Virus record (IMG/VR): IMGVR_UViG_3300030101_002616
Coordinates: 1-64,000 of that record
DNA from: a virus
Length of the DNA: 64,000 nt
Strand: one strand, 5' to 3'
The notes under the pieces were generated by a model. That model was given only the letters and a program-made list of their open reading frames with translations. It did no database searches and was not told where the DNA came from. Shown here one piece after another: positions 17,119 through 36,053 of this stretch (positions are counted from its first letter, which is position 1; every line of letters starts with the position of its first letter). The position numbers and the translations under genes were made by a program.

Positions 17119-20100
17119 ATGGCAAAGGGATTACAAACTTTTCTTAGTTATAAATACCTAAAAGATGCTTCAGGTATTCAATATCTTGTACTTATATCTC
17201 ATGTAAGTAATCCTGTTATTGGTGCTGCAGGTCTTGGAAAGGGTTTTACTTTAACTCCTAAAACTGTAAGTACTTTAAAAGATGGTAACAGAGAACAAGT
17301 ATATACTTATACAGGTTCTGGTAATGTAACCGCAAATTTTAAAGAAGGTCAAACTATAACTATCAGTGTATCTGATATTCCAAAAGGCAGTGAACTTGCA
17401 GTTCCTTTTGACTCCTTAGAAAGATCTTTTAATTTTGATGTATCATCTGAATCTTTACTTGGGTATGATATATCTGATGCTTTATTCTATTCAGAAGGTA
17501 CGGCTAGCTATAGAGAAAGTTATATACTACCACAATCTAGTAATCCTCATTTAGATACTAGTAGCAGAACAGATTTTTATTATACAGCAGATGGCTCTGC
17601 TGCATACATGGGATCTACCAGCCTACAAAACAAATTTTTAAATAATATAGGTTATAGTAATAGAGGATCTGATAGTACTGATTTAGGTAAATTCAGAGGA
17701 GGATCTGATGATAATACTTCAGTTGAATTTACTACTACCCACCAAACTCCAGTTGCCGGACAAACAACTGGTCCTGCAACGCAAGGGGGTATAGTAGCAT
17801 TTAGTTTTATACCTAGAACTAGTGCTGTTGATGACACCCCATTACCTATTATTGATGTATGTCAAGATCCTCAAGCTACTAATTTCTATTTAACAGGCTG
17901 TATAAACGAAGAGTTACCCTGTGTAGATTCAGGAACTACTCATGCTAATGATTGTGAAGGAGTTGCTTTAACAGCAGATATAATAAATAACAGCGTCTTA
18001 ACTAATGGGTCATGTTGTGAATATACAACTGGATGTGAAGATTTTAATGTAGTTATAGGTGATATAACAGCAGCTAATATAGACGTAGCAAATGGTACTA
18101 TTAATATAACAGTATCTGGAGGAACGCAAAATTATACTGCAGTAGTTGGTGCTATAGAACTAGATAATCCAGAAAATTCATTTAGCACTCAAACTACAAA
18201 TAGTATTTCTACTGATGAATTTACTCTTAGCAGTTTATTTCCTGGTAAATATAATCTTAGTGTAACAGATTCTACATCAGGTACAGCTTGTAATCAAAGA
18301 ATAGAGTTTATTGTACCACCAAAAGGATCTGATCCTGGTGGTGAAGGAGATTTTGGATGTAAAGATACTAGCTCAGCAATCAATCACGATAACTCTGTTA
18401 CTACACACCAAGATAGACTATGTGTTTTTTGTGATGCTGACTCTGGTTTATTATTTGCAGATTCTACTAATCCAACATTTTTAGGAAATGCTTTTGTTCC
18501 TACTTCTGACAGTCCTATTTTTAATTTTAATAATGCTACAAGCACTCCAGAAGGTGTAAGTATTGAAAATGGTTCACTTACTTTTCTTGGTGTTCAACTA
18601 TTTAATGAAGATATTAACTTATCTGAGCCTCCTGCAGTTCATAATTTTAATCCTCTTGAAGAGTTTACTACTGATCAAGCTAGTATGTTTGATTATCAGT
18701 TGTACAGAATTGATTCAGAAGTAGACGGGTTACTGAATGAAATTAATCTTGCTGAATCAGGAAATGTAAAAGCTTGGCTAACTGCTAATGCAACAGCTGT
18801 AGGAAGTGTGGTTCAAACTACGGGTGCAGCACACTCATTTACAAGTTTAGGTCCAGGAACCTATACAGTATTAGTTACATATGATGCAGATGGAACTCCA
18901 AATGGTGATCCAGAAGAAGAACAATGTTATTATGTACCTATACCTCAAACTGTCTATCAAAGAGGATGTACTGATCCAACTGCTGATAACTACAACACTG
19001 CTTTTGAGTCTGATCCAAATTCATTTTTACCAAGTGAGGGTTGTTTTTATCCGCCCCAAACTTGCAATGATCCAGGAATAGTATTTGATGCTGTAGTTTC
19101 ATGCAATGCAGACGACGGAACTATACAAATTGACTCAATAGATTTTGTATCACTTAATCCTGATATATTAGATGCAGGAGTAAATGGGTTTATTGTAACT
19201 CAGGATCATGTAAACCCACCATTTGGAGCAGGAGTAATTGTTGCTGCAGGAGGATCTGGATTTGCTGCTCTTCAATATATTGCGTGGGAACTTTTTTGTT
19301 ACGATCTTTTTAATAGTAGTATTGATCCTAATATGCATTGGATGAGTTTACCAGTTGGATTTCCTCAAGGCTATGTAAACTCTGAAGGTGTTGTACCTGC
19401 TAGTGGGGCTGGTAACCTTGCAAACATGTATAGAATACTTTCAACAATAACTTTTGCTGATGGAACTGATTTATTTCTTGGAGAAATAGGTTTAGGTGAC
19501 CTTTTACCAAATACAGTTCCTTTTGATACTCCAAATCTTGTAAATTATGGTGAAGTAACTTGTGAGCATATAAGTACACACGGTACTCCTACTTCTGTAA
19601 CATTTAATTATAACTATGGGGAATATAATGTATATGGAGAAAGCGCATCTTATACACATATTTTTACAATAAGTCAACTAGAACAATTTACTGGTTGTTG
19701 TGAATTTTCAGAACCTGAACCTGAAGGCTGTACTGATCCTACTGCAACAAACTTTGATCCAGCTGCTATAATAGACGACGGTTCTTGTATTTACCCTGAA
19801 CCCCCAGTGGTTCCAGGTTGCACAGACCCTACAGCTACAAACTTTGACCCACTTGCTACAGTCGACGATGGATCATGTGAATACATTCAACAAGGTTCTT
19901 GGTTACAAGCTGATTGTTTTACTTGTTCTTACAATGAAAACTTTCCTAATGGATTTGAAACCCAAGAAGAGTGTGAAGATTCTATTGAGTCTAACACAGA
20001 CTGTTGTGTTCTTGAGACTTATGTTAATAATGCTGGTGATATTATGGGTACCCTTCCAGTATTAGATACAACTAACTCAAGTTCAATTTTTAATGATGTG

Positions 20101-21585
20101 ACAGGATTATGTGACGATCAATCTACTGGTTCGTTCGTTTTTACTTTTCCTTCTGGTTTAAACAACAGTGTATTTAATATGACTAGCAATGTATCTTTCT
20201 TTTGGAGAGTAGGTACTCTTTGTTGTCCTAGTGTACAATATAGTAATATCTGGTCCGGAGCTCTAACTAATGATTTTGGAGAGGTTACTGATGCAATTAC
20301 TAATATGGATACGTCAGATTTAATAGATTTAACTGGTGCAACCCAGTCCATTACTGTGAATGGTATAGAAAGTGGACAATACATAATGTGGTTTTATTTC
20401 TTTGATATACCTTTTGATGCTACTGGGGCAGACCCAATAAATGGCCTACCATACCAAGATGGTGGACAATCTTGTACTACTTACACAGTAAATATTGATA
20501 TTGGCATAGATGATTGTGATGATAGTATTGTACATGGTTGTACTGATCCTGAAGCAGATAATTATAATGAAAGTGCAACTGTAGATGATGGAACATGTAC
20601 ATACACAGATATTAATGACGACAATCCTGATGGTGGTGATGGTGGTGATCCAGGAGGTCCTGGTGGTCCTGATGAAGAAGTTGGTTGTGATTGCGGAGAT
20701 GGTACATATTCTCCAGCATGTTGTCCACCTACTGCAATTTGTGGATGTCAAGATCCAAATGCAAGTAATTTTAATCCAAATGCCACTTATTATGATCCAA
20801 CCGCAGATGGTTGTGGGTGTGAATATGATGGAGATCCTCCATTTGTAGGTGATCCACCAATTACATCAACTGTTTTAGCTTGTGTTCCTAGAACTATTCA
20901 TAAATTAATAAGATACAATAATGAGTGTATAGCAAGGGCAGGTCATAGAGTTTATACTAAACATATAACGGGATTAGGCAATAGTTGTTCTAATATGGAA
21001 ACTATGAAAATGGTTATTATTAATGATCTTATTAGTAGACTAGGGCTACCTTGTATATTTAATTGTTCAGATAATGATACGCCTGCTCCAGATACAGCTT
21101 CTAATGTTTGTAAAGATAATTGGACTAATAATGGTTCTTTATACTGGAATCCAGCAGATGCAGCAGCTAATATATATAATTTAGGAATACATGTTAGAAG
21201 ACCATTTGTACCTAACCCAGGTGGTTTACCAGCACCTATATATGTTGCTATATCTAACTCTGGATTAGACATAGATCCATTCTCTAACAATTCAGCTAGT
21301 GGATGGAAGTTATGTAAAACAGAATCTATAGTAAATGAAAAGAATAATTATTTACCAAACTTTCTTAAATTTGCACACGAGTATTGTAAAAATTGTGGAA
21401 TACCTCCATATAGAATAGATGATACTCTTTCTTCAAGTGTTACAGATACATTTACTACTGGTGGAAATGATATAACAGCAGGGGGGACTACATTTGATAA
21501 TACTTCAGATCAAACAGATCTAACAACTCTTGACGATATAGAGGGAAATGAAACAGATAACGAAACAGGAGGTTTATACTCTTAA
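17119..21585 (+). CDS. Large acidic Cys-rich adhesin-like virion protein with GCTDP repeats, 1488 aa
   Basis: About seven GCxDPxAxN(Y/F)...DDGxC repeats, a SprB-like Ig segment (GTINITVSGGTQNYT), no signal peptide, located in the tail module. Confidence 0.75.
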   Translation: MAKGLQTFLSYKYLKDASGIQYLVLISHVSNPVIGAAGLGKGFTLTPKTVSTLKDGNREQVYTYTGSGNVTANFKEGQTITISVSDIPKGSELAVPFDSLERSFNFDVSSESLLGYDISDALFYSEGTASYRESYILPQSSNPHLDTSSRTDFYYTADGSAAYMGSTSLQNKFLNNIGYSNRGSDSTDLGKFRGGSDDNTSVEFTTTHQTPVAGQTTGPATQGGIVAFSFIPRTSAVDDTPLPIIDVCQDPQATNFYLTGCINEELPCVDSGTTHANDCEGVALTADIINNSVLTNGSCCEYTTGCEDFNVVIGDITAANIDVANGTINITVSGGTQNYTAVVGAIELDNPENSFSTQTTNSISTDEFTLSSLFPGKYNLSVTDSTSGTACNQRIEFIVPPKGSDPGGEGDFGCKDTSSAINHDNSVTTHQDRLCVFCDADSGLLFADSTNPTFLGNAFVPTSDSPIFNFNNATSTPEGVSIENGSLTFLGVQLFNEDINLSEPPAVHNFNPLEEFTTDQASMFDYQLYRIDSEVDGLLNEINLAESGNVKAWLTANATAVGSVVQTTGAAHSFTSLGPGTYTVLVTYDADGTPNGDPEEEQCYYVPIPQTVYQRGCTDPTADNYNTAFESDPNSFLPSEGCFYPPQTCNDPGIVFDAVVSCNADDGTIQIDSIDFVSLNPDILDAGVNGFIVTQDHVNPPFGAGVIVAAGGSGFAALQYIAWELFCYDLFNSSIDPNMHWMSLPVGFPQGYVNSEGVVPASGAGNLANMYRILSTITFADGTDLFLGEIGLGDLLPNTVPFDTPNLVNYGEVTCEHISTHGTPTSVTFNYNYGEYNVYGESASYTHIFTISQLEQFTGCCEFSEPEPEGCTDPTATNFDPAAIIDDGSCIYPEPPVVPGCTDPTATNFDPLATVDDGSCEYIQQGSWLQADCFTCSYNENFPNGFETQEECEDSIESNTDCCVLETYVNNAGDIMGTLPVLDTTNSSSIFNDVTGLCDDQSTGSFVFTFPSGLNNSVFNMTSNVSFFWRVGTLCCPSVQYSNIWSGALTNDFGEVTDAITNMDTSDLIDLTGATQSITVNGIESGQYIMWFYFFDIPFDATGADPINGLPYQDGGQSCTTYTVNIDIGIDDCDDSIVHGCTDPEADNYNESATVDDGTCTYTDINDDNPDGGDGGDPGGPGGPDEEVGCDCGDGTYSPACCPPTAICGCQDPNASNFNPNATYYDPTADGCGCEYDGDPPFVGDPPITSTVLACVPRTIHKLIRYNNECIARAGHRVYTKHITGLGNSCSNMETMKMVIINDLISRLGLPCIFNCSDNDTPAPDTASNVCKDNWTNNGSLYWNPADAAANIYNLGIHVRRPFVPNPGGLPAPIYVAISNSGLDIDPFSNNSASGWKLCKTESIVNEKNNYLPNFLKFAHEYCKNCGIPPYRIDDTLSSSVTDTFTTGGNDITAGGTTFDNTSDQTDLTTLDDIEGNETDNETGGLYS
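19726..19880 (+). repeat. Tandem coding repeat GCTDPTATNFDPxAxxDDGSC (two adjacent copies)
   Basis: Near-identical peptides with synonymous DNA differences. Confidence 0.85.
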
Positions 21586-23883: not shown

Positions 23884-24270
23884 ATGGGAACATTAAGTGT
23901 TAAATTAGAATTAATAAGTAGAGGTTTTGGAACCCCTACAAAAATAAGAGTTACAGATCTTATAACTACGACTAATCCTTCACAAACTTTGTCTCGTGTA
24001 AGTGCAACCACTACAGGAGGTGACACTATCATTCTTCCTAATGCTAATGTAGAACGTTTTGTCTATATAAAACATTTAGGATTAAACTCAGCAGGAGCAA
24101 GAAACGTAACAGATAAATTAAAAGTAGAATATTCTGATGGCAATCATATAGCAGAGCTTAGAGCAGGAGAGTTTTTGTTTTTACCTTATGACACAGGTGG
24201 ATCAGCTCTTTTACAACTAGAAGCTTCTGCAAATACGATACAAGCAGAATATGCATTTTTTACTAGATAG
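23884..24270 (+). CDS. Small beta-rich putative virion protein, 128 aa
   Basis: FVYIKH...LRAGEFLFLP...AEYAFF pattern. Confidence 0.6.
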   Translation: MGTLSVKLELISRGFGTPTKIRVTDLITTTNPSQTLSRVSATTTGGDTIILPNANVERFVYIKHLGLNSAGARNVTDKLKVEYSDGNHIAELRAGEFLFLPYDTGGSALLQLEASANTIQAEYAFFTR

Positions 24271-24271
24271 A

Positions 24272-25318
24272 ATGATTAGAGTATTTGTAATATTATTAGT
24301 TTTCTTAATGTCTTGTGCAGCACCGAAAGAGTGTTGCTCACAGATTAAAAAAGCTATAAAGTTTTCTACATTCTATGTAGCAGCGAATGGAGGTACGTCT
24401 TTATCTGATAGAGAAGTATATTCTATAAATGGAAGTACACTTTTATATGATACTATTATTACTCCTTATGACTACTCATTATCTATGGGTATTCGTAAGA
24501 TACAGAGGTTTCAATATGAAGGTACTTCACCATTTAAAGATGGTACAGAGTCATCATTTAGTGATGCTGCTAGTATAGGTAGAAACCCTTTTGAGTATTT
24601 ATTTGAGATAGAATATAGAAGACAGGAGGGTGTAGAGTATTTTGATCAGCATCATTTTATAAGATATGCTAGATCTAAGTGGTTTACAAAAGCAGAATAT
24701 ATTAAAGATGGTTTTGCAGACATAGAGTATTTTGAGGGTACACACAGACTACGACTGAATGGTGGTAAAAAACTATCATTCAACATAGGCGCTGTACAAA
24801 GATTAGCAGAGCCGTATGGATATGATCCATTAGAAGAGTGGACTATGTCTACAGGTGATATACACTATACACAACTAGCTATTGAAGAGGGATATAGTAT
24901 AGATGTATATGAATCTGAGTATAGAGCACCAGATGGTGCAATTGTAGCAAATAGTGCTGAGGTATGGAATCAGATAGTTATGCCAGAAGTATTAGAAAAT
25001 TATGTAGAAAAGAAACGAAATGAACTAGCTAATCAATGGCAGCATTCATTAGTAATAGGTTTTGATTTCTATCACTATAAGAAAAACTTTTGGTTACACT
25101 CTTGGGGTAACTTTATGCCTTACCATTATAATGATGGTGGACAATATTCTTATCATAATTTTAATGATGGAGAGCAGTGGTATGATTACTCAGGAGGATT
25201 AATATTTGGACTGAAAGCAACAAAACACTTAGGATGTTTTATTGAAGGTAAATACAATAAGTATTGGAATAAAGAATGGTACGATTTTAAATTAGGAATT
25301 AACTACGTTATATTTTAA
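24272..25318 (+). CDS. Putative outer-membrane beta-barrel protein with signal peptide
   Basis: Start MIRVFVILLVFLMSC (ATG 24272, 1 nt after the upstream stop); 12 or more amphipathic aromatic-rich strands; C-terminal WYDFKLGINYVIF resembles a BAM beta-signal ending in Phe. Confidence 0.7.
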   Translation: MIRVFVILLVFLMSCAAPKECCSQIKKAIKFSTFYVAANGGTSLSDREVYSINGSTLLYDTIITPYDYSLSMGIRKIQRFQYEGTSPFKDGTESSFSDAASIGRNPFEYLFEIEYRRQEGVEYFDQHHFIRYARSKWFTKAEYIKDGFADIEYFEGTHRLRLNGGKKLSFNIGAVQRLAEPYGYDPLEEWTMSTGDIHYTQLAIEEGYSIDVYESEYRAPDGAIVANSAEVWNQIVMPEVLENYVEKKRNELANQWQHSLVIGFDFYHYKKNFWLHSWGNFMPYHYNDGGQYSYHNFNDGEQWYDYSGGLIFGLKATKHLGCFIEGKYNKYWNKEWYDFKLGINYVIF

Positions 25319-25320
25319 AA

Positions 25321-25599
25321 ATGGCAACTGAAATAGGAAAAGACACTAAAATTAAATTAAGTTTAGAAACAATAATATCTTTAGGATTTGTATTAGTAAC
25401 TATGACTGGTATGTGGTTTACACTAAAAGGGGAGATAGCTGAAGCAAAAGAATTACCAGTAGCTCCAGATCCAGAAGTAACACGTATGGAGTTTGATATG
25501 AAAGATCAAATGATACGTAACACTATTATGAATACTCAAGAAGATGTAACTGAAATAAAAGCTACATTAGAAAAGATAGAAGATAAACTTTATAAATAA
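25321..25599 (+). CDS. Single-TM protein with C-terminal coiled coil, 92 aa
   Basis: TM IISLGFVLVTMTGMWFTL; heptads VTEIKATLEKIEDKL. Confidence 0.7.
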   Translation: MATEIGKDTKIKLSLETIISLGFVLVTMTGMWFTLKGEIAEAKELPVAPDPEVTRMEFDMKDQMIRNTIMNTQEDVTEIKATLEKIEDKLYK

Positions 25600-25937
25600 T
25601 GTGGAAAGTTATATACAAGCATTTATTATTTTTATTTTTTTGTACGGTCTCGTATACTGCTTTTTCACAGATCACAGTGATTCACTTTAACGCTGGCTGG
25701 AACGAAGCTAATGATGTAGAGTGGTTTGATAAATTATCAGACGCTGGTAAAAAAAGTTTAAGTATTGACGATAAAGACATACAAAAGGAATATGCTATTG
25801 CTATTGTACCTACTATCATTGTGTTTGATGAGGGCGAAGAAGTAAAACGTTTTCAAGCAGATCTTAGTTTTGAGATGGTGGCTACAAGAAAAGAGATACA
25901 GAATTACATCGACGAATTAATAATGAGTAAATTTTAA
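25599..25937 (+). CDS. Secreted thioredoxin-fold protein lacking CxxC
   Basis: Signal peptide ...SYTAFS-Q; VIHFNAGWNEAN at the WCxxC position; KEYAIAIVPTIIVFDEGEEVKRF is the cis-Pro/Trx C-terminal pattern. Confidence 0.75.
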   Translation: MWKVIYKHLLFLFFCTVSYTAFSQITVIHFNAGWNEANDVEWFDKLSDAGKKSLSIDDKDIQKEYAIAIVPTIIVFDEGEEVKRFQADLSFEMVATRKEIQNYIDELIMSKF

Positions 25938-25938
25938 T

Positions 25939-26820
25939 ATGGCAAATATTTTAGGATTAGGATTAAGCACAATAAAAGGATCAACAGTTGATCAACCATA
26001 TGCTACAAGGTTTGCTAGCTTTAATGGATCAAGTAGTAAGGCTTTAGCAGCACCAGGTAGACTGCCTTTAATATTAGCAGGTAGTGGTACTCTTGGAGAG
26101 AATATAACATTTTCTATGTGGATAAAGGCTACATGGACTATACCTGCAAGTCCAGCTGATGCAGTAGTTAACAATATACCATTTTTTATGTTAGGTAGTG
26201 ATACAGATGTGCATGAAGCGTTTAGAATGTATTATATGATAGAAGACGGTTCTGCTAACAATAAAAATGATGTTGTTATGGAACTAAGAAGTTCAACTCC
26301 TAGTAATTCTAGACAAAATGAAATAATGAGATTAAGCGCTACAGGCGGCAGTCCAAGCAATTCGACTATAACAGGTAGTAGTGCCGCTGATCACGATAAA
26401 ATGTGGGACAGTGATAACTCTGCTATAACAACAAATAATGATGGATTTGTACATATAGTTTGTAGTAGAGGTACCTTAGATTGGAAAATATTTTGGAATG
26501 GTATTAACTGTGAAGTGATAGACAATGATTCAGGCTCATTAAACACAGATGTAACTGAGTTTGATTCTTTTAGTATAGGATATTGGGAGTATGCTGATGC
26601 TTATGGTCAACTAGGTGTAAGAGATTTTGCAATATATAATAGTCAACTATCTGGTTCAGATGTAACTGCATTATACAATGGTGGAGTACTAGCTGATCAT
26701 AGAGATTTAATTACACCACAGCCTATAGTATATTATCCTTTTGAAGAAGATGGTAATGACGTAATAATATCTACAGGACCACACTTAACTTTAACCGATG
26801 TAACTTTTGAAAATATATAA
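25939..26820 (+). CDS. LamG / concanavalin A-like lectin-domain protein
   Basis: TFSMWIK, FVHIVCS, WKIFWNG, RDFAIYNSQLSGSDVTALYNGG, YYPFEE motifs; no signal peptide. Confidence 0.8.
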   Translation: MANILGLGLSTIKGSTVDQPYATRFASFNGSSSKALAAPGRLPLILAGSGTLGENITFSMWIKATWTIPASPADAVVNNIPFFMLGSDTDVHEAFRMYYMIEDGSANNKNDVVMELRSSTPSNSRQNEIMRLSATGGSPSNSTITGSSAADHDKMWDSDNSAITTNNDGFVHIVCSRGTLDWKIFWNGINCEVIDNDSGSLNTDVTEFDSFSIGYWEYADAYGQLGVRDFAIYNSQLSGSDVTALYNGGVLADHRDLITPQPIVYYPFEEDGNDVIISTGPHLTLTDVTFENI

Positions 26821-28829
26821 TGAATAACTTTACTAAATTTTTATACGCATTTTTAATAGTCGCAGTATTTACTGCAGCTTCAGCGTTTGGACAATGTCCT
26901 CCAGGATCTTGGAGTTTAGATATAACTGTAAATCCTGATCAATATCCAGAAGAAACAACTTGGCATTTAGTTACGTTTAGTGGTGACACTTTGTTAGAAG
27001 GTGGGCCATATACTAATATAGTAGATTATGAACCACAGTACGCAGGTATATGTGTACCTGTTGATAGTTTTCTGTTTATATTAAACGATCAATATGGTGA
27101 CGGTGTTGCAGGTAGCTTGTGGGGTGGTAATGATGGTTCTATTTATATAGAGCAATGTGGTGATACTATATGGACTTTACCTGTAGCTGATTTTGGCTAT
27201 CAAATATATGATACAATATATACTTCTGGATGTCCTCCGCCCCCACCAATATACGGGTGTATGGATAGCAGTTATGTAGAGTTTGACTTAACAGCTACAT
27301 TAGACACAGGTATGTGTTTTACACCAAAGATATATGGATGTACAGACTCATTAGCATATAATTATATAGACTCAGCTAATACAGATATAAATATAGATAG
27401 CTGTATGCATGAGTTAGAATTAACCGACTTAGCTGGAAATGGCTGGGCTGGTTCTTCATTAAAACTATCACAGGCAACTAGTATGATGCCGCCATTTAAC
27501 TATCAAGTTATTGGTACGTATACATTGCTAGATGGTTTTGATACAACGTTCTTTATAAATTTAGCAGCAGGGTATCCTGTTAGAGCAGTGTTTGAAATTA
27601 CACAGCAATCAGACTTTACTGCAGTACAATGTGGCTATAGCTTATATTCTGAAGATTATGTAGCTATAGATATAGAAGGTGGATTTGTAAATCCTATACC
27701 TCCATTCTTTCCTATTATGGGAGATCCATACTGCGGTAATAATTGTATAGAAAGAACATATGGTTGTATAGACAGCCTAGCAGTAAATTATAACAATACA
27801 GTAAATACAGATGATGGAACTTGTTACTATAATCCAGGGTGTACTAATCCACTTTATTTGGAGTATGACGCGGCTTATGACTATGACGATGGTAGTTGTA
27901 TTACGATGGTTGTATACGGATGTATGGACTCAACTGCACTTAATTACGATCCATTGGCTAACGTTGAGTTACCTAACTCTTGTATTGCTATCGTAGAAGG
28001 GTGCACTGACAGTACAATGTTTAATTATAATATCAATGCAAATGTTGATGATGGTAGTTGTATATCTTTTTACTACGGATGTACAGACCCAACAGCATTT
28101 AACTATGATAGCTTAGCGAACACAGACGACGGCTCATGCATATCCGTTGTTTGGGGCTGCACTGACCCTGCGGCCTTTAACTACAATTCATTAGCTAATA
28201 GCGATGATGGATCATGTATACCAGTAATATTTGGTTGTACAGATCCTAGTATGTTTAACTATTGTGACACTTGTAACACAGATAATGGTAGTTGTATACC
28301 TTACATATATGGATGTATGGATAGTACAGCTATGAATTATGATGCTACAGCTAACACAGATAATAACACTTGTATATATCCATTCCCTGGTTGTATGGAT
28401 ATTACAGCTGTAAACTATGAACCGTTAGCTAATGTTACTGATAGTAGTTGTTACTATGAGTCAGGGTGTGATGCAAGTGTTCCATATTATATACCTAACT
28501 CGTGTTTTGAATGGGTTATACAAGTAGATCCATATTGCTGTGATAATAGTTGGGATGAGCCTTGCTATGATTTATATAACTATTGTGTAGATGGTTGGAC
28601 AGGTCCTACAGACATAGCAATGTTTGAGAGAGTAGGCGTACTACCATATCCTAATCCATCAACAGGTGTAGTAAACTTTACAGCTGAGGTAGGAATAAAA
28701 GTATACGACATGTTAGGTAAGTTGATATTAGAAGATAAATCAAATACAATAAAACTTAACAAAGGTATATATCTAATTAAGATTTCTAAGGAAAACTTAA
28801 ACATAACAACAAAACTAATTATAGAATGA
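26820..28829 (+). CDS. T9SS type A sorting-domain protein with Cys-rich GCxD repeats
   Basis: Sec signal ...ASAFG-Q; PDQYPEETTW/DQYGDG N-domain; 11 GCxD repeats; C-terminal YPNPSTG...VYDMLGK...KGIYLIKI...TTKLIIE is the canonical Por/T9SS type A CTD. Confidence 0.9.
   Translation: MNNFTKFLYAFLIVAVFTAASAFGQCPPGSWSLDITVNPDQYPEETTWHLVTFSGDTLLEGGPYTNIVDYEPQYAGICVPVDSFLFILNDQYGDGVAGSLWGGNDGSIYIEQCGDTIWTLPVADFGYQIYDTIYTSGCPPPPPIYGCMDSSYVEFDLTATLDTGMCFTPKIYGCTDSLAYNYIDSANTDINIDSCMHELELTDLAGNGWAGSSLKLSQATSMMPPFNYQVIGTYTLLDGFDTTFFINLAAGYPVRAVFEITQQSDFTAVQCGYSLYSEDYVAIDIEGGFVNPIPPFFPIMGDPYCGNNCIERTYGCIDSLAVNYNNTVNTDDGTCYYNPGCTNPLYLEYDAAYDYDDGSCITMVVYGCMDSTALNYDPLANVELPNSCIAIVEGCTDSTMFNYNINANVDDGSCISFYYGCTDPTAFNYDSLANTDDGSCISVVWGCTDPAAFNYNSLANSDDGSCIPVIFGCTDPSMFNYCDTCNTDNGSCIPYIYGCMDSTAMNYDATANTDNNTCIYPFPGCMDITAVNYEPLANVTDSSCYYESGCDASVPYYIPNSCFEWVIQVDPYCCDNSWDEPCYDLYNYCVDGWTGPTDIAMFERVGVLPYPNPSTGVVNFTAEVGIKVYDMLGKLILEDKSNTIKLNKGIYLIKISKENLNITTKLIIE
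27761..28455 (+). repeat. Nine tandem ~26-aa coding repeats GCxDxxAxNYxxxANxDDGSC
   Basis: Visible in the translation; roughly 78-nt period with synonymous divergence. Confidence 0.9.
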
Positions 28830-29293
28830 AATTAGAAGTATTAAGATTTAGCTCACAGTCAGACTGTACACATGGATTGTTGTTTGAAGTAAATGATTTA
28901 GGCAGACACTTCTTGTGCTATACATTAGAAGACGAACATCGTGTTCTAAAAGTAAAAGGCGAGACAAGAATACCATCAGGTACATATAAAATAGAACTAA
29001 GAAAAGAAGGAGGATTTCATGCTAGATACGATAAAAAATATCCTGGTATACACCGTGGTATGTTGCATGTCATTGATGTTCCTGGTTTTGAGTATATTCT
29101 TATTCATACTGGAAACACTGACGAGCATACTGCTGGTTGTCTTATCGTTGGAGACAGTCAAGAAAACAATCTTATTCTCCGCGATGGGTTCGTTGGTAAG
29201 AGCGTTAACGCGTATAAGAGGATTTATCCAGCTATTGCAAAGGCAATAGAACAAGGAGAAGAAGTAACGATAGAATATATTGATTTTGATTAA
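28826..29293 (+). CDS. DUF5675-family protein (candidate peptidoglycan-acting lysis enzyme)
   Basis: CYTLED...ETRIPSGTY...DVPGFEYILIHTGN...HTAGCLIVG; the His...GC pair resembles an L,D-transpeptidase-like active site. Confidence 0.75.
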   Translation: MKLEVLRFSSQSDCTHGLLFEVNDLGRHFLCYTLEDEHRVLKVKGETRIPSGTYKIELRKEGGFHARYDKKYPGIHRGMLHVIDVPGFEYILIHTGNTDEHTAGCLIVGDSQENNLILRDGFVGKSVNAYKRIYPAIAKAIEQGEEVTIEYIDFD

Positions 29294-31425: not shown

Positions 31426-31845
31426 ATGATACAAAAAGTAATGGGCGGATTATTTGGCAAAGTGCTAGACAACGCTGAAGGAATACTAGACAAAGTAATT
31501 ACAACTGATAAAGAAAGAGATCAGGCTAAGATAGAATTACAAAAGATAATGCTAGAAGCAGAACGTGAAGCTTTTGCTAAAGAAGTAGAAGATAGAAAGT
31601 CTGCAAGAGATATGTATAAAGATGATGCTATCATCCAAAAAGTGTTAGCAACTTTGTTCACAGTTGCATACTTTGGTATTAGTTTTGTGATGTTTAATCA
31701 CTTTGTTCTAGGAGATATAAACTTGGGAGAGTTTGAAATTAGCTTTATTTCTACTATCTTTGGAGCAATGTCGGCAAAAGTCAACACAATTGTTGATTTC
31801 TTTTTTGGCGGCAGTTCAAAGAAAAATAGTAACGAAGACAAATAA
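31426..31845 (+). CDS. Putative holin
   Basis: LDKVITTDKER...DRKSARDM, two TM helices, FFFGGS plus charged tail; resembles the GTA-type 3TM holin pattern. Confidence 0.7.
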   Translation: MIQKVMGGLFGKVLDNAEGILDKVITTDKERDQAKIELQKIMLEAEREAFAKEVEDRKSARDMYKDDAIIQKVLATLFTVAYFGISFVMFNHFVLGDINLGEFEISFISTIFGAMSAKVNTIVDFFFGGSSKKNSNEDK

Positions 31846-35491: not shown

Positions 35492-35781
35492 TGGCTGTAA
35501 GAAAAACTGCTGCAGGCGCTAGACTAAAGCGTTGGTTTAAAGAAAAGTGGAGAACACCTCGTGGTAATAAAGACTACAGTGGAGGTGAGAACACATTTAG
35601 ACCTACTAGACGTATATCTAAAGATACACCATCTACGTGGTCTGAACTGTCTGCATCAGAGAAGGCTAGAGCTCAGCAAGAGAAGAATACTAAAGGAAGA
35701 GTTAGTAGATATAAAAAGAAAAAGAAAGTTAAACGTGCGAAGGGTGGTGGATTTATACTACCTGGACCAACAATGATATAA
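35491..35781 (+). CDS. Small basic protein (DUF5872-like, LKRWFKEKW...FRPTRRISKDTP)
   Basis: Motif recalled from aquatic-phage small proteins; family label unverified. Confidence 0.6.
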   Translation: MAVRKTAAGARLKRWFKEKWRTPRGNKDYSGGENTFRPTRRISKDTPSTWSELSASEKARAQQEKNTKGRVSRYKKKKKVKRAKGGGFILPGPTMI

Positions 35782-35783
35782 CT

Positions 35784-36053
35784 ATGGCAACACCAGCATG
35801 GCAAAGAAAAGCAGGAAAGAATCCTAGCGGTGGGTTAAACGCTGCAGGAAGACGATCTTATAATCAATCTACAGGTGGTAATTTAAAAGCTCCTAGTAAA
35901 AAGAAAGGAAACAAAAGACGCTCTAGTTTCTGTAGTAGAATGTGCGGCATGAAAGCTAAACGTACAGGAGCTAAAGGTCAAAGAGATCCTAAATCAAGAA
36001 TTAACAAATCGCTACGTGCATGGAATTGTGGTAGCTGTAGTAACTGGAGATAA
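35784..36053 (+). CDS. Small basic protein (DUF6321-like, PAWQRKAGKNPSGGLN...RRSSFCSRM...SLRAWNC)
   Basis: Motif recalled from aquatic-phage small proteins; family label unverified. Confidence 0.65.
   Translation: MATPAWQRKAGKNPSGGLNAAGRRSYNQSTGGNLKAPSKKKGNKRRSSFCSRMCGMKAKRTGAKGQRDPKSRINKSLRAWNCGSCSNWR

Follow-up and report, generated by a model that had tools for sequence, protein, structure and literature searches.

The window analysed here, a stretch of 64,000 nucleotides at the start of the 80.5-kb virus record IMGVR_UViG_3300030101_002616 of IMG/VR (CheckV completeness of the record 93%), holds a gene on its plus strand (26820..28829) whose product of 669 amino acids, referred to below as the cargo, is laid out like a substrate of the Bacteroidota type IX secretion system (T9SS), with a Sec signal peptide, a cysteine-rich passenger and a type A C-terminal domain (CTD). 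A first-pass annotation of the same letters had read the gene as such a substrate encoded by a phage, and the reading frame is present as there described. The window is that of a phage: it encodes a crAss-type major capsid protein (MCP; PF23898, Crass_capsid, 273.6 bits), a portal protein (phrog_6547, 423 bits), the large terminase TerL (phrog_6681, 432 bits) and the tail ring proteins CrAss_Ring_1 (175 bits), Ring_2 (147 bits) and Ring_3_4 (30 bits), together with a series of giant open reading frames at 37-64 kb. Capsid and portal are about 30-33% identical to those of gut crAss-like phages (about 30% for the MCP), and the public sequencing runs that contain the stretch are marine metagenome DNA, with no RNA run among those listed. 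By its gene content the window phage is a divergent marine crAss-like phage.

The cargo gene has its place between tail genes of crAss type and, as had been noticed at first pass, is coupled in translation to both of its neighbours. The stop codon of the preceding gene overlaps the cargo ATG by one base (TAATG, 26818-26822), and the ATG of the following gene overlaps the cargo stop codon (ATGA, 28826-28829). This places the gene inside the phage genome and not in a host flank.

Domain anatomy and export signals of the cargo

An AlphaFold2 model of the cargo, built from 34 homologues (mean predicted local distance difference test, pLDDT, 75), and a motif scan divide the protein into the parts listed in Table 1. 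The scan recovers all eleven of the Cys-paired repeats that had been claimed for it. They are about 26 amino acids long each, follow the pattern GCxD..A.NY...AN.DDGSC and start at amino acids 146 and 173 and then at 315, 340, 367, 394, 420, 446, 472, 498 and 524. The Cys and Gly of these GCxD repeats are invariant in the homologue alignment, and the Cys-rich module behind them (C..WVI.VD.YCC..WD..C...Y.YC) has invariant columns from C550 to C589 in the alignment of 34 homologues. All 37 Cys of the cargo lie in the passenger, which in its mature form is Asn-rich and very acidic (79 Asp and Glu versus 5 Lys and Arg); the CTD is Cys-free and basic (isoelectric point 9.0). No catalytic domain was found in the cargo by Pfam, NCBIfam or PHROGs, and PHROGs and PADLOC gave no match for the cargo or for the three genes that form a cassette with it. 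The fold of D2 resembles, weakly, that of a PLAT domain (Z 6.8) and of the Ca-dependent carbohydrate-binding module 2xhh (Z 6.7). A PLAT or carbohydrate-binding identity was not accepted for D1 or D2, the matches being generic sandwiches, and a protein atlas search with D1 returned unnamed viral clusters and nothing else.

The N-terminus has the sequence features of the Sec signal that the first-pass annotation had seen there, namely a K-containing n-region, a hydrophobic helix at amino acids 4-22 of the model and Gln at the presumed +1 position. This residue, Gln25, is invariant in 34 of 34 aligned homologues, and a small-x-small-Q pattern occurs near amino acids 11-45 in 58 of 64 homologues. 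Substrates of signal peptidase I (SPase I) in Bacteroidetes follow a Q-rule (PMC5837995), which was noted earlier for phage proteins of Porphyromonas gingivalis (PMC10367356), and because the +1 Gln is invariant, a cleavage before Gln25 would be consistent with this rule.

At the other end of the protein the type A CTD proved to be genuine. TIGR04183 matches amino acids 610-669 with 41 bits (cut-off 23) and PF18962 (Por_Secre_tail) matches the last 60-62 amino acids (nucleotides ~28641-28826) with 40.6 bits (cut-off 27); in a six-frame search of the 80.5-kb record the CTD scored 45.8 bits and was the single one there, with no second. It is modelled as a compact four-to-six-strand immunoglobulin (Ig)-like sandwich (pLDDT 79-88) and is the sole part of the cargo with a clear structural match. 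Foldseek matched it with the CTD of NucA (8glk_D; E 1.5e-4, TMt 0.72, root mean square deviation (rmsd) 1.9). By VIA it fits the FspA and NucA CTDs (8glj_D and 8glk_D) with Z 8.5 and an rmsd of 1.7-1.8 A over 64-65 residues at 25-28% identity, and the further matches are RgpB (Z 7.9) and the RemA CTD (Z 6.8) and then the CTDs of mirolase, PorZ and PorU. The CTDs in 8glk and 8glj were solved in complex with the translocon of Flavobacterium johnsoniae.

Table 1. Parts of the cargo and genes around it, in coordinates of the window (aa, amino acids)
Feature	Position	Strand	Basis or remark
1488-aa signal-less protein, tail region	17119..21585	+	about 5 copies of the cargo's GCxD repeat
355-aa secreted outer-membrane beta-barrel	24251..25318	+	model pLDDT 76; adjoins cargo across the family
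92-aa single-pass membrane protein with coiled-coil tail	25321..25599	+	sequence; conserved in cassette
112-aa secreted thioredoxin-fold protein without CxxC	25599..25937	+	sub-threshold thioredoxin matches; conserved in cassette
293-aa variable insert between three-gene unit and cargo	25939..26820	+	in 4 of 51 related loci
Cargo: signal peptide, aa 1-24, presumed SPase I cleavage ...AFG|Q	26820..26891	+	hydrophobic helix and Q25
Cargo: D1, beta-sandwich, aa 25-140	26892..27239	+	pLDDT 83-91; invariant D..ET and YGDG motifs
Cargo: GCxD repeats 1-2, aa 141-195	27240..27404	+	motif scan
Cargo: D2, second beta-sandwich, aa 196-305	27405..27734	+	model
Cargo: GCxD repeats 3-11, aa 306-548	27735..28463	+	nine tandem two-Cys, D/N-rich units of ~26 aa
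Cargo: Cys-rich helical module, aa 549-607, then linker	28464..28640	+	helices 561-590 in model
Cargo: T9SS type A CTD, aa 608-669, and stop codon	28641..28829	+	family models, fold match
DUF5675, candidate cell-wall hydrolase, coupled to cargo	28826..29293	+	PF18925 94.9 bits, phrog_1501, weak Tlde1
139-aa holin-like protein	31426-31845		PF11351 (GTA_holin_3TM) 19.2 bits, below cut-off

Conservation, exchange of the tail and cellular relatives

The protein database holds thousands of relatives of the cargo, the best 120 of which are 45-97% identical to it and mostly carry PF18962, and in IMG/VR there are 51 loci with cargo homologues of 31-97% identity. Pseudogenised homologues, which the first-pass annotation had named as evidence that would speak against it, were not encountered: the frame is open in all of the 51 loci except L003, whose frame is not resolved. 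Wherever the contig extends past the gene, the homologue is complete, beginning like a signal peptide and ending like a CTD, and TIGR04183 is matched by 29 of 34 full-length homologues. The ratio of non-synonymous to synonymous substitution rates (dN/dS, pairwise Nei-Gojobori) among the phage homologues is 0.04-0.17 for the whole gene, which points to purifying selection, and 0.02-0.22 for D1, D2 and the repeats. The suggestion that the gene is a domesticated phage gene thus finds good support, in that it is intact in over 60 related viral contigs, evolves under purifying selection and stands in the same cassette throughout; it is not a recent passenger. The length of the homologues (601-1130 amino acids) tracks the number of their repeats (6-22 by the strict motif; r = 0.72), as would be expected for a spacer or stalk. 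A tblastn search of the cargo against phage records gave repeat-level likeness to one marine single-cell virus and nothing more.

In five larger related records the family model finds exactly one CTD in three and none in two; the latter two still carry the cargo gene, and the model's first look had missed their tails. A shorter conserved tail, ...D.LGR..K..KN.LLFFIY.DGTVEKK.IK, ends a subset of the cargo homologues (loci L040, L043, L044, L180-L183, L187, L189, L191, L192, L195 and L204) and also some cellular repeat proteins of Flavobacteriales (locus L066). This short tail may be a compact or a distinct sorting signal.

Family-wide, the last 62 residues are often much more or much less alike than the remaining cargo would lead one to expect. 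The bodies of L008 and L009, for instance, are 92% identical and their CTDs 32%, and the window and L012 share 69% in the bodies and 89% in the CTDs. The latter pair was rejected as a CTD-only swap: the downstream genes are 95-97% identical, the CTD moves with them and the breakpoint is an ordinary one. That all of the swaps are ordinary recombination breakpoints is ruled out by pairs which are conserved on both flanks. Such CTD-only replacement between conserved flanks was found in 14 pairs among 22 genomes, and in L007 and L008 the N-terminal body is 91%, the Cys module 79%, the CTD 34%, DUF5675 84% and the holin-like gene 91% identical. Replacement of the CTD alone between conserved flanks is what a working and interchangeable sorting part would undergo, and these comparisons of sequence argue that the CTD is a functioning, exchangeable sorting tag. 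A near-identical cellular donor of a CTD was not found among the cellular repeat proteins, where the best identity is 40%.

Among cellular genomes, an exact-peptide-pattern scan of 185,579 species genomes found no close relative of the cargo, and a profile-based scan returned 537 stretches. Four near-full-length "cellular" matches (L053-L056) lie in metagenome-assembled genomes (MAGs) labelled Sphingobacteriales, Parvibaculum, Rickettsiales and Flavobacteriales. All four have the phage genes for the beta-barrel, the 92-amino-acid and the 112-amino-acid protein beside the match, L055 on a contig of 120 kb, and because these genes of the phage cassette adjoin the match we read them as contigs which are very probably of phages mis-binned into MAGs. 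In the other cellular loci, about 70 in number and about 60 of them Flavobacteriales by title, likeness is confined to the repeat region. The cellular GCxD proteins are giant, reaching more than 4,900 amino acids and at most 84 repeats, and 18 of the 48 with a complete 3' end match a CTD model that was built on the tails of the phage cargos, with identities of at most 40%. A profile of D1 run against 1.84 billion representatives detected 6,606 proteins, in which the domain frequently stands in 2-10 copies in tandem; thousands of secreted Bacteroidota proteins have it. The carriers sampled include a protein of 4,444 amino acids from Algibacter luteus (WP_289195568.1) whose annotation reads T9SS type A sorting domain protein, a PKD protein of Saprospiraceae, metalloproteases of the M43, M11 and M12B families and BACON-repeat proteins, and Por_Secre_tail is present in 5 of the 10 carriers scanned. 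D2 and the Cys-rich module occur in the phage family only, among the loci sampled. In its composition, then, the phage cargo is a set of accessory modules of host-type secreted proteins to which two family-specific modules are joined.

Many of the giant cellular GCxD proteins end in a tail of another kind, D(F/L)(S/N)G.V...DLL.(L/F)L..F...C, which is dockerin- or EF-hand-like (loci L091, L098, L115, L120, L125, L126, L082, L086, L092, L095 and L102) and could be another sorting or anchoring signal of marine Flavobacteriales.

The cassette and the neighbouring genes

The genes for the barrel and for the proteins of 92 and 112 amino acids form a unit that adjoins the cargo gene in nearly all loci, mostly upstream of it and in L035, L047, L048 and L052 downstream. 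The barrel, which ends in ...GINYVIF, is modelled with 12-14 strands and matches CymA (Z 11.0), OmpG (Z 10.7) and NanC (E 1.5e-5), and also KdgM and autotransporter translocators. Considered as a T9SS shuttle of the PorV (FadL-like) or PorP/SprF type, it looks like a generic barrel that reaches Z 8.3 with a FadL homologue and finds 8gl6_F only at Foldseek rank 33, and no specific likeness to PorV or FadL is apparent. It has no match in Pfam or NCBIfam and none in deposited phage genomes. A search with the barrel found at least 593 viral stretches, and among 78 new barrel loci 48 have a cargo that ends in a type A CTD, 10 a short-tail cargo and 4 a cargo cut by the contig end, the remaining ones having too little flank to tell, so that on these counts the linkage of barrel and cargo is essentially complete. 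Within the family the leader of the barrel is in some cases a plain SPase I one (...ASAQ) and in others lipobox-like (...LMSC or ...ACSAPKKCCSQ), and the barrel may be a lipoprotein in some of the phages and not in others. The 112-amino-acid protein has FNAGWNEAN in place of WCxxC and a single Cys, which lies in its signal peptide. Its identification as a redox-active thioredoxin or DsbA-like protein was rejected, CxxC being absent and the match, at 19.4 bits, falling short of its cut-off (96.8).

The three proteins probably work together with the cargo. A complex of the barrel with amino acids 545-669 of the cargo, predicted with both partners given as alignments, scored 0.56, with 0.00 for the best of 3 controls, and was rated as weak support; three runs gave 0.00, 0.56 and 0.62, with a contact agreement of at least 0% and a partner pLDDT of at least 74. 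Of 80 solved complexes 58 attain the mark in question, as do 2 of 110 mismatched pairs, and marks of 0.60 or less comprise 7 of the 80 solved complexes plus both of the mismatches that passed. Likeness to solved complexes of PorV with a CTD may inflate the score of the barrel and the cargo.

As to the other genes around the cargo, the insert of 293 amino acids has no family match in Pfam, NCBIfam or PHROGs. The DUF5675 protein contains an H...GC motif like that of enzymes with the L,D-transpeptidase fold and is a candidate endolysin; together with the holin-like protein of 139 amino acids it may represent the lysis genes of the phage. The repeats of the 1488-amino-acid protein are at most 63% identical to those of the cargo over two units, and no other part of the two proteins aligns. 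This protein has 53 Cys although it is signal-less, an oddity in a product of cytoplasmic synthesis, and a sub-threshold match to the SprB repeat (19.2 bits). A scan for sigma-70 promoters and terminators, which does not model promoters of Bacteroidota or of phage RNA polymerases, found no excess over the shuffled expectation. Finally, when 20 kb of the window were compared with phage records by megablast, no close relative emerged among deposited phages. The sole match is 256 bp long (window ~35774-36029) and 76% identical to Pelagibacter phage Greip (MT375525.1), where it is annotated "RecA-like recombination protein | hypothetical protein"; it could be a mobile or conserved element that is common to unrelated marine phages.

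Function of the exported protein and comparison with known systems

What is a secretion substrate of this kind doing in a phage? We consider it likely, and hold it with reasonable though not full confidence, that the protein is a genuine exported cargo of the T9SS with a non-enzymatic binding or coating role. Judging from its two signals, the infected cell very probably exports it via Sec and the T9SS of the host. The host would then be a T9SS-positive member of the Bacteroidota, as had been proposed at first pass; this is a reasonable inference, since crAss-like phages infect Bacteroidota and since the repeat and CTD modules are found in MAGs of marine Flavobacteriales. We propose that late in infection the protein would be exported by Sec and cleaved before Gln25, and that the passenger with its 37 Cys would fold and be oxidised in the periplasm. 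The host PorV/SprA would then recognise the CTD and the protein would be translocated, after which the CTD would be removed and the passenger attached to the surface of the infected cell or released. In this layout D1 and D2 would make up a distal head, the repeats an acidic stalk stapled by disulfides and the Cys-rich module the base. Expression is placed late on account of the gene's coupling in translation to genes of the tail and of lysis type (DUF5675; the weak holin-like gene at 31426).

Several observations weigh against this reading. Of the 34 full-length homologues, 5 miss TIGR04183, and at least three (L040, L043 and L044) end in the shorter tail. In a whole-model search D1 and D2 resemble generic beta-sandwiches only (Z 5.7-6.8; alpha-toxin PLAT Z 5.7). 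Moreover, the cargo gene is placed among structural and lysis-type genes, so that its product might conceivably act in the virion or in lysis.

The first-pass annotation had left it open whether the phage hijacks the T9SS of the host or jams it. The hijacking half of this proposal stands as the best reading. The jamming half would make the cargo a decoy or plug, whose CTD engages PorV/SprA and blocks or slows the T9SS and so depletes gliding or T9SS-dependent receptors and excludes other phages. The CTD is genuine, and a bulky passenger with about 18 disulfides could translocate slowly. However, a plug would need the tag alone, yet it is the tag that shows the lowest conservation and the freest exchange, while the passenger is conserved as strongly as any part of the gene (dN/dS 0.02-0.22). 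In addition, the passenger's modules are those of ordinary host cargo, with which the T9SS evidently copes even where it has as many as 84 repeats. We therefore regard a plug as unlikely.

A role in lysis has slightly less in its favour still and must be called improbable. Here the cargo, the barrel and the 92-amino-acid protein would weaken or break the outer membrane late in infection in the manner of spanins. One might point to the translational coupling of the cargo to DUF5675, a likely cell-wall enzyme, to the weak holin-like gene at 31426-31845 (below cut-off) and to the 92-amino-acid protein, which is laid out like an i-spanin. The passenger, however, is acidic, disulfide-rich and soluble-looking and has no amphipathic or membrane-active segment, and it is the unit of the barrel and the two small proteins that is constantly beside the cargo in the relatives, which DUF5675 and the holin-like gene are not.

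Could the cargo instead be part of the virion, a tail fibre or decoration protein with a C-terminus that is Ig-like and merely resembles a CTD and an N-terminus that is no working signal peptide? Its gene lies in the tail and fibre region, it has a repeat in common with the signal-less protein of 1488 amino acids and Ig-like domains are frequent on phage fibres. We nevertheless think this very improbable: the signal-peptide-like N-terminus is kept family-wide and none of the 34 aligned homologues departs from its +1 Gln, the 37 Cys of the paired repeats would call for an oxidising compartment whereas the cytoplasm is where virions are assembled, the C-terminus is recognised by curated CTD models and fits solved CTDs better than other Ig domains, and the three cassette partners are envelope-targeted too. 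Finally, a useless host gene that was recently acquired or misassembled into the phage, as the host-type D1, repeats and CTD might suggest, is close to refuted, in that the full architecture occurs solely with the phage cassette (which L053-L056 carry as well), more than 60 distinct intact homologues are under purifying selection and the gene is translationally coupled on both sides.

The job of the cargo is most likely a non-enzymatic binding or coating that alters the surface of the infected cell. No particular role is probable on its own: surface masking or superinfection exclusion is a fair candidate, adhesion or aggregation a somewhat weaker one, and the chance that it does something else is somewhat larger than either. 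Masking or exclusion is mildly favoured because a protein of the virion region uses the same repeat. A further step would be to regard the four genes as a self-contained surface-display module of the phage, in which the barrel, as a counterpart of the PorV/SprF shuttle, receives or anchors the passenger after export by the T9SS, and the CTD as a cassette that tunes the cargo to the T9SS of each host. Anchoring would be through the invariant Cys-rich base module, the CTD or both, and the exchangeable CTD would act as a part linked to host range. Such a module is hinted at by the barrel unit touching the cargo on either side, by the CTD-only replacement and by the weak complex score, and we put it forward as a doubtful but possible extension.

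Should the predicted export take place, infected Flavobacteriales would have their surface re-dressed, by way of the T9SS of the host, by a very large and abundant clade of marine crAss-like phages. For key degraders of algal organic matter this could have consequences in superinfection, in attachment to particles and in aggregation. The barrel, the coiled-coil protein, the thioredoxin-like protein and the cargo would moreover be a defined and conserved set for studying the use of the T9SS by phages, and the freely exchanged CTDs would amount to a natural experiment on the tags that a given T9SS accepts.

As an idea, phage-encoded type A cargo of the T9SS is already published (PMC7468147, PMC6949934); a literature search found no paper that treats the marine GCxD cargo family or its cassette. 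Bellas et al. (2020, Nat Commun; PMC7468147) described a "Cryophage" with three variable genes for T9SS type A sorting-domain proteins and proposed hijacking. As here, a phage of a host from the FCB group encodes proteins with type A CTDs, and in the Cryophage the cargo genes vary between variants. The cargos of this glacier phage, however, are an endoglucanase, a GH39 protein and a PA14 protein in flexible islands, whereas in the family described here each genome has a single repeat protein, which is non-enzymatic and belongs to a fixed envelope cassette of four genes, and it is the CTD that is swapped. De Jonge et al. (2019, Viruses; PMC6949934) reported T9SS sorting-domain proteins near BACON-repeat reading frames in cluster 2 of the gut crAss-like phages and left their function open. 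Those are likewise crAss-like phages that encode sorting-domain proteins, but they come from the gut, have BACON repeats and carry the genes upstream of the head module, in contrast to the marine GCxD repeats with D1 and D2 in the tail and lysis region.

Among cellular cargo, NucA and FspA of F. johnsoniae and RgpB of P. gingivalis have the same succession of Sec signal, passenger and C-terminal Ig-like CTD; the present cargo differs from them in being phage-encoded, in lacking a catalytic passenger and in its short CTD of about 60 amino acids. With the giant surface proteins of marine Flavobacteriales, such as WP_289195568.1 of Algibacter luteus, it has D1, the GCxD repeats and often the type A CTD in common, but these are far longer, are without D2 or the Cys-rich base in the loci sampled and reach a CTD identity of about 40% at best. 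Llp of phage T5 and Cor of lambdoid phages are small envelope lipoproteins that block a defined receptor and thereby cause superinfection exclusion. Unlike theirs, the route of the cargo would be the T9SS, and its role is a deduced one; like them, it would be a phage protein that is sent to the envelope through the export machinery of the host and alters the surface which other phages meet.

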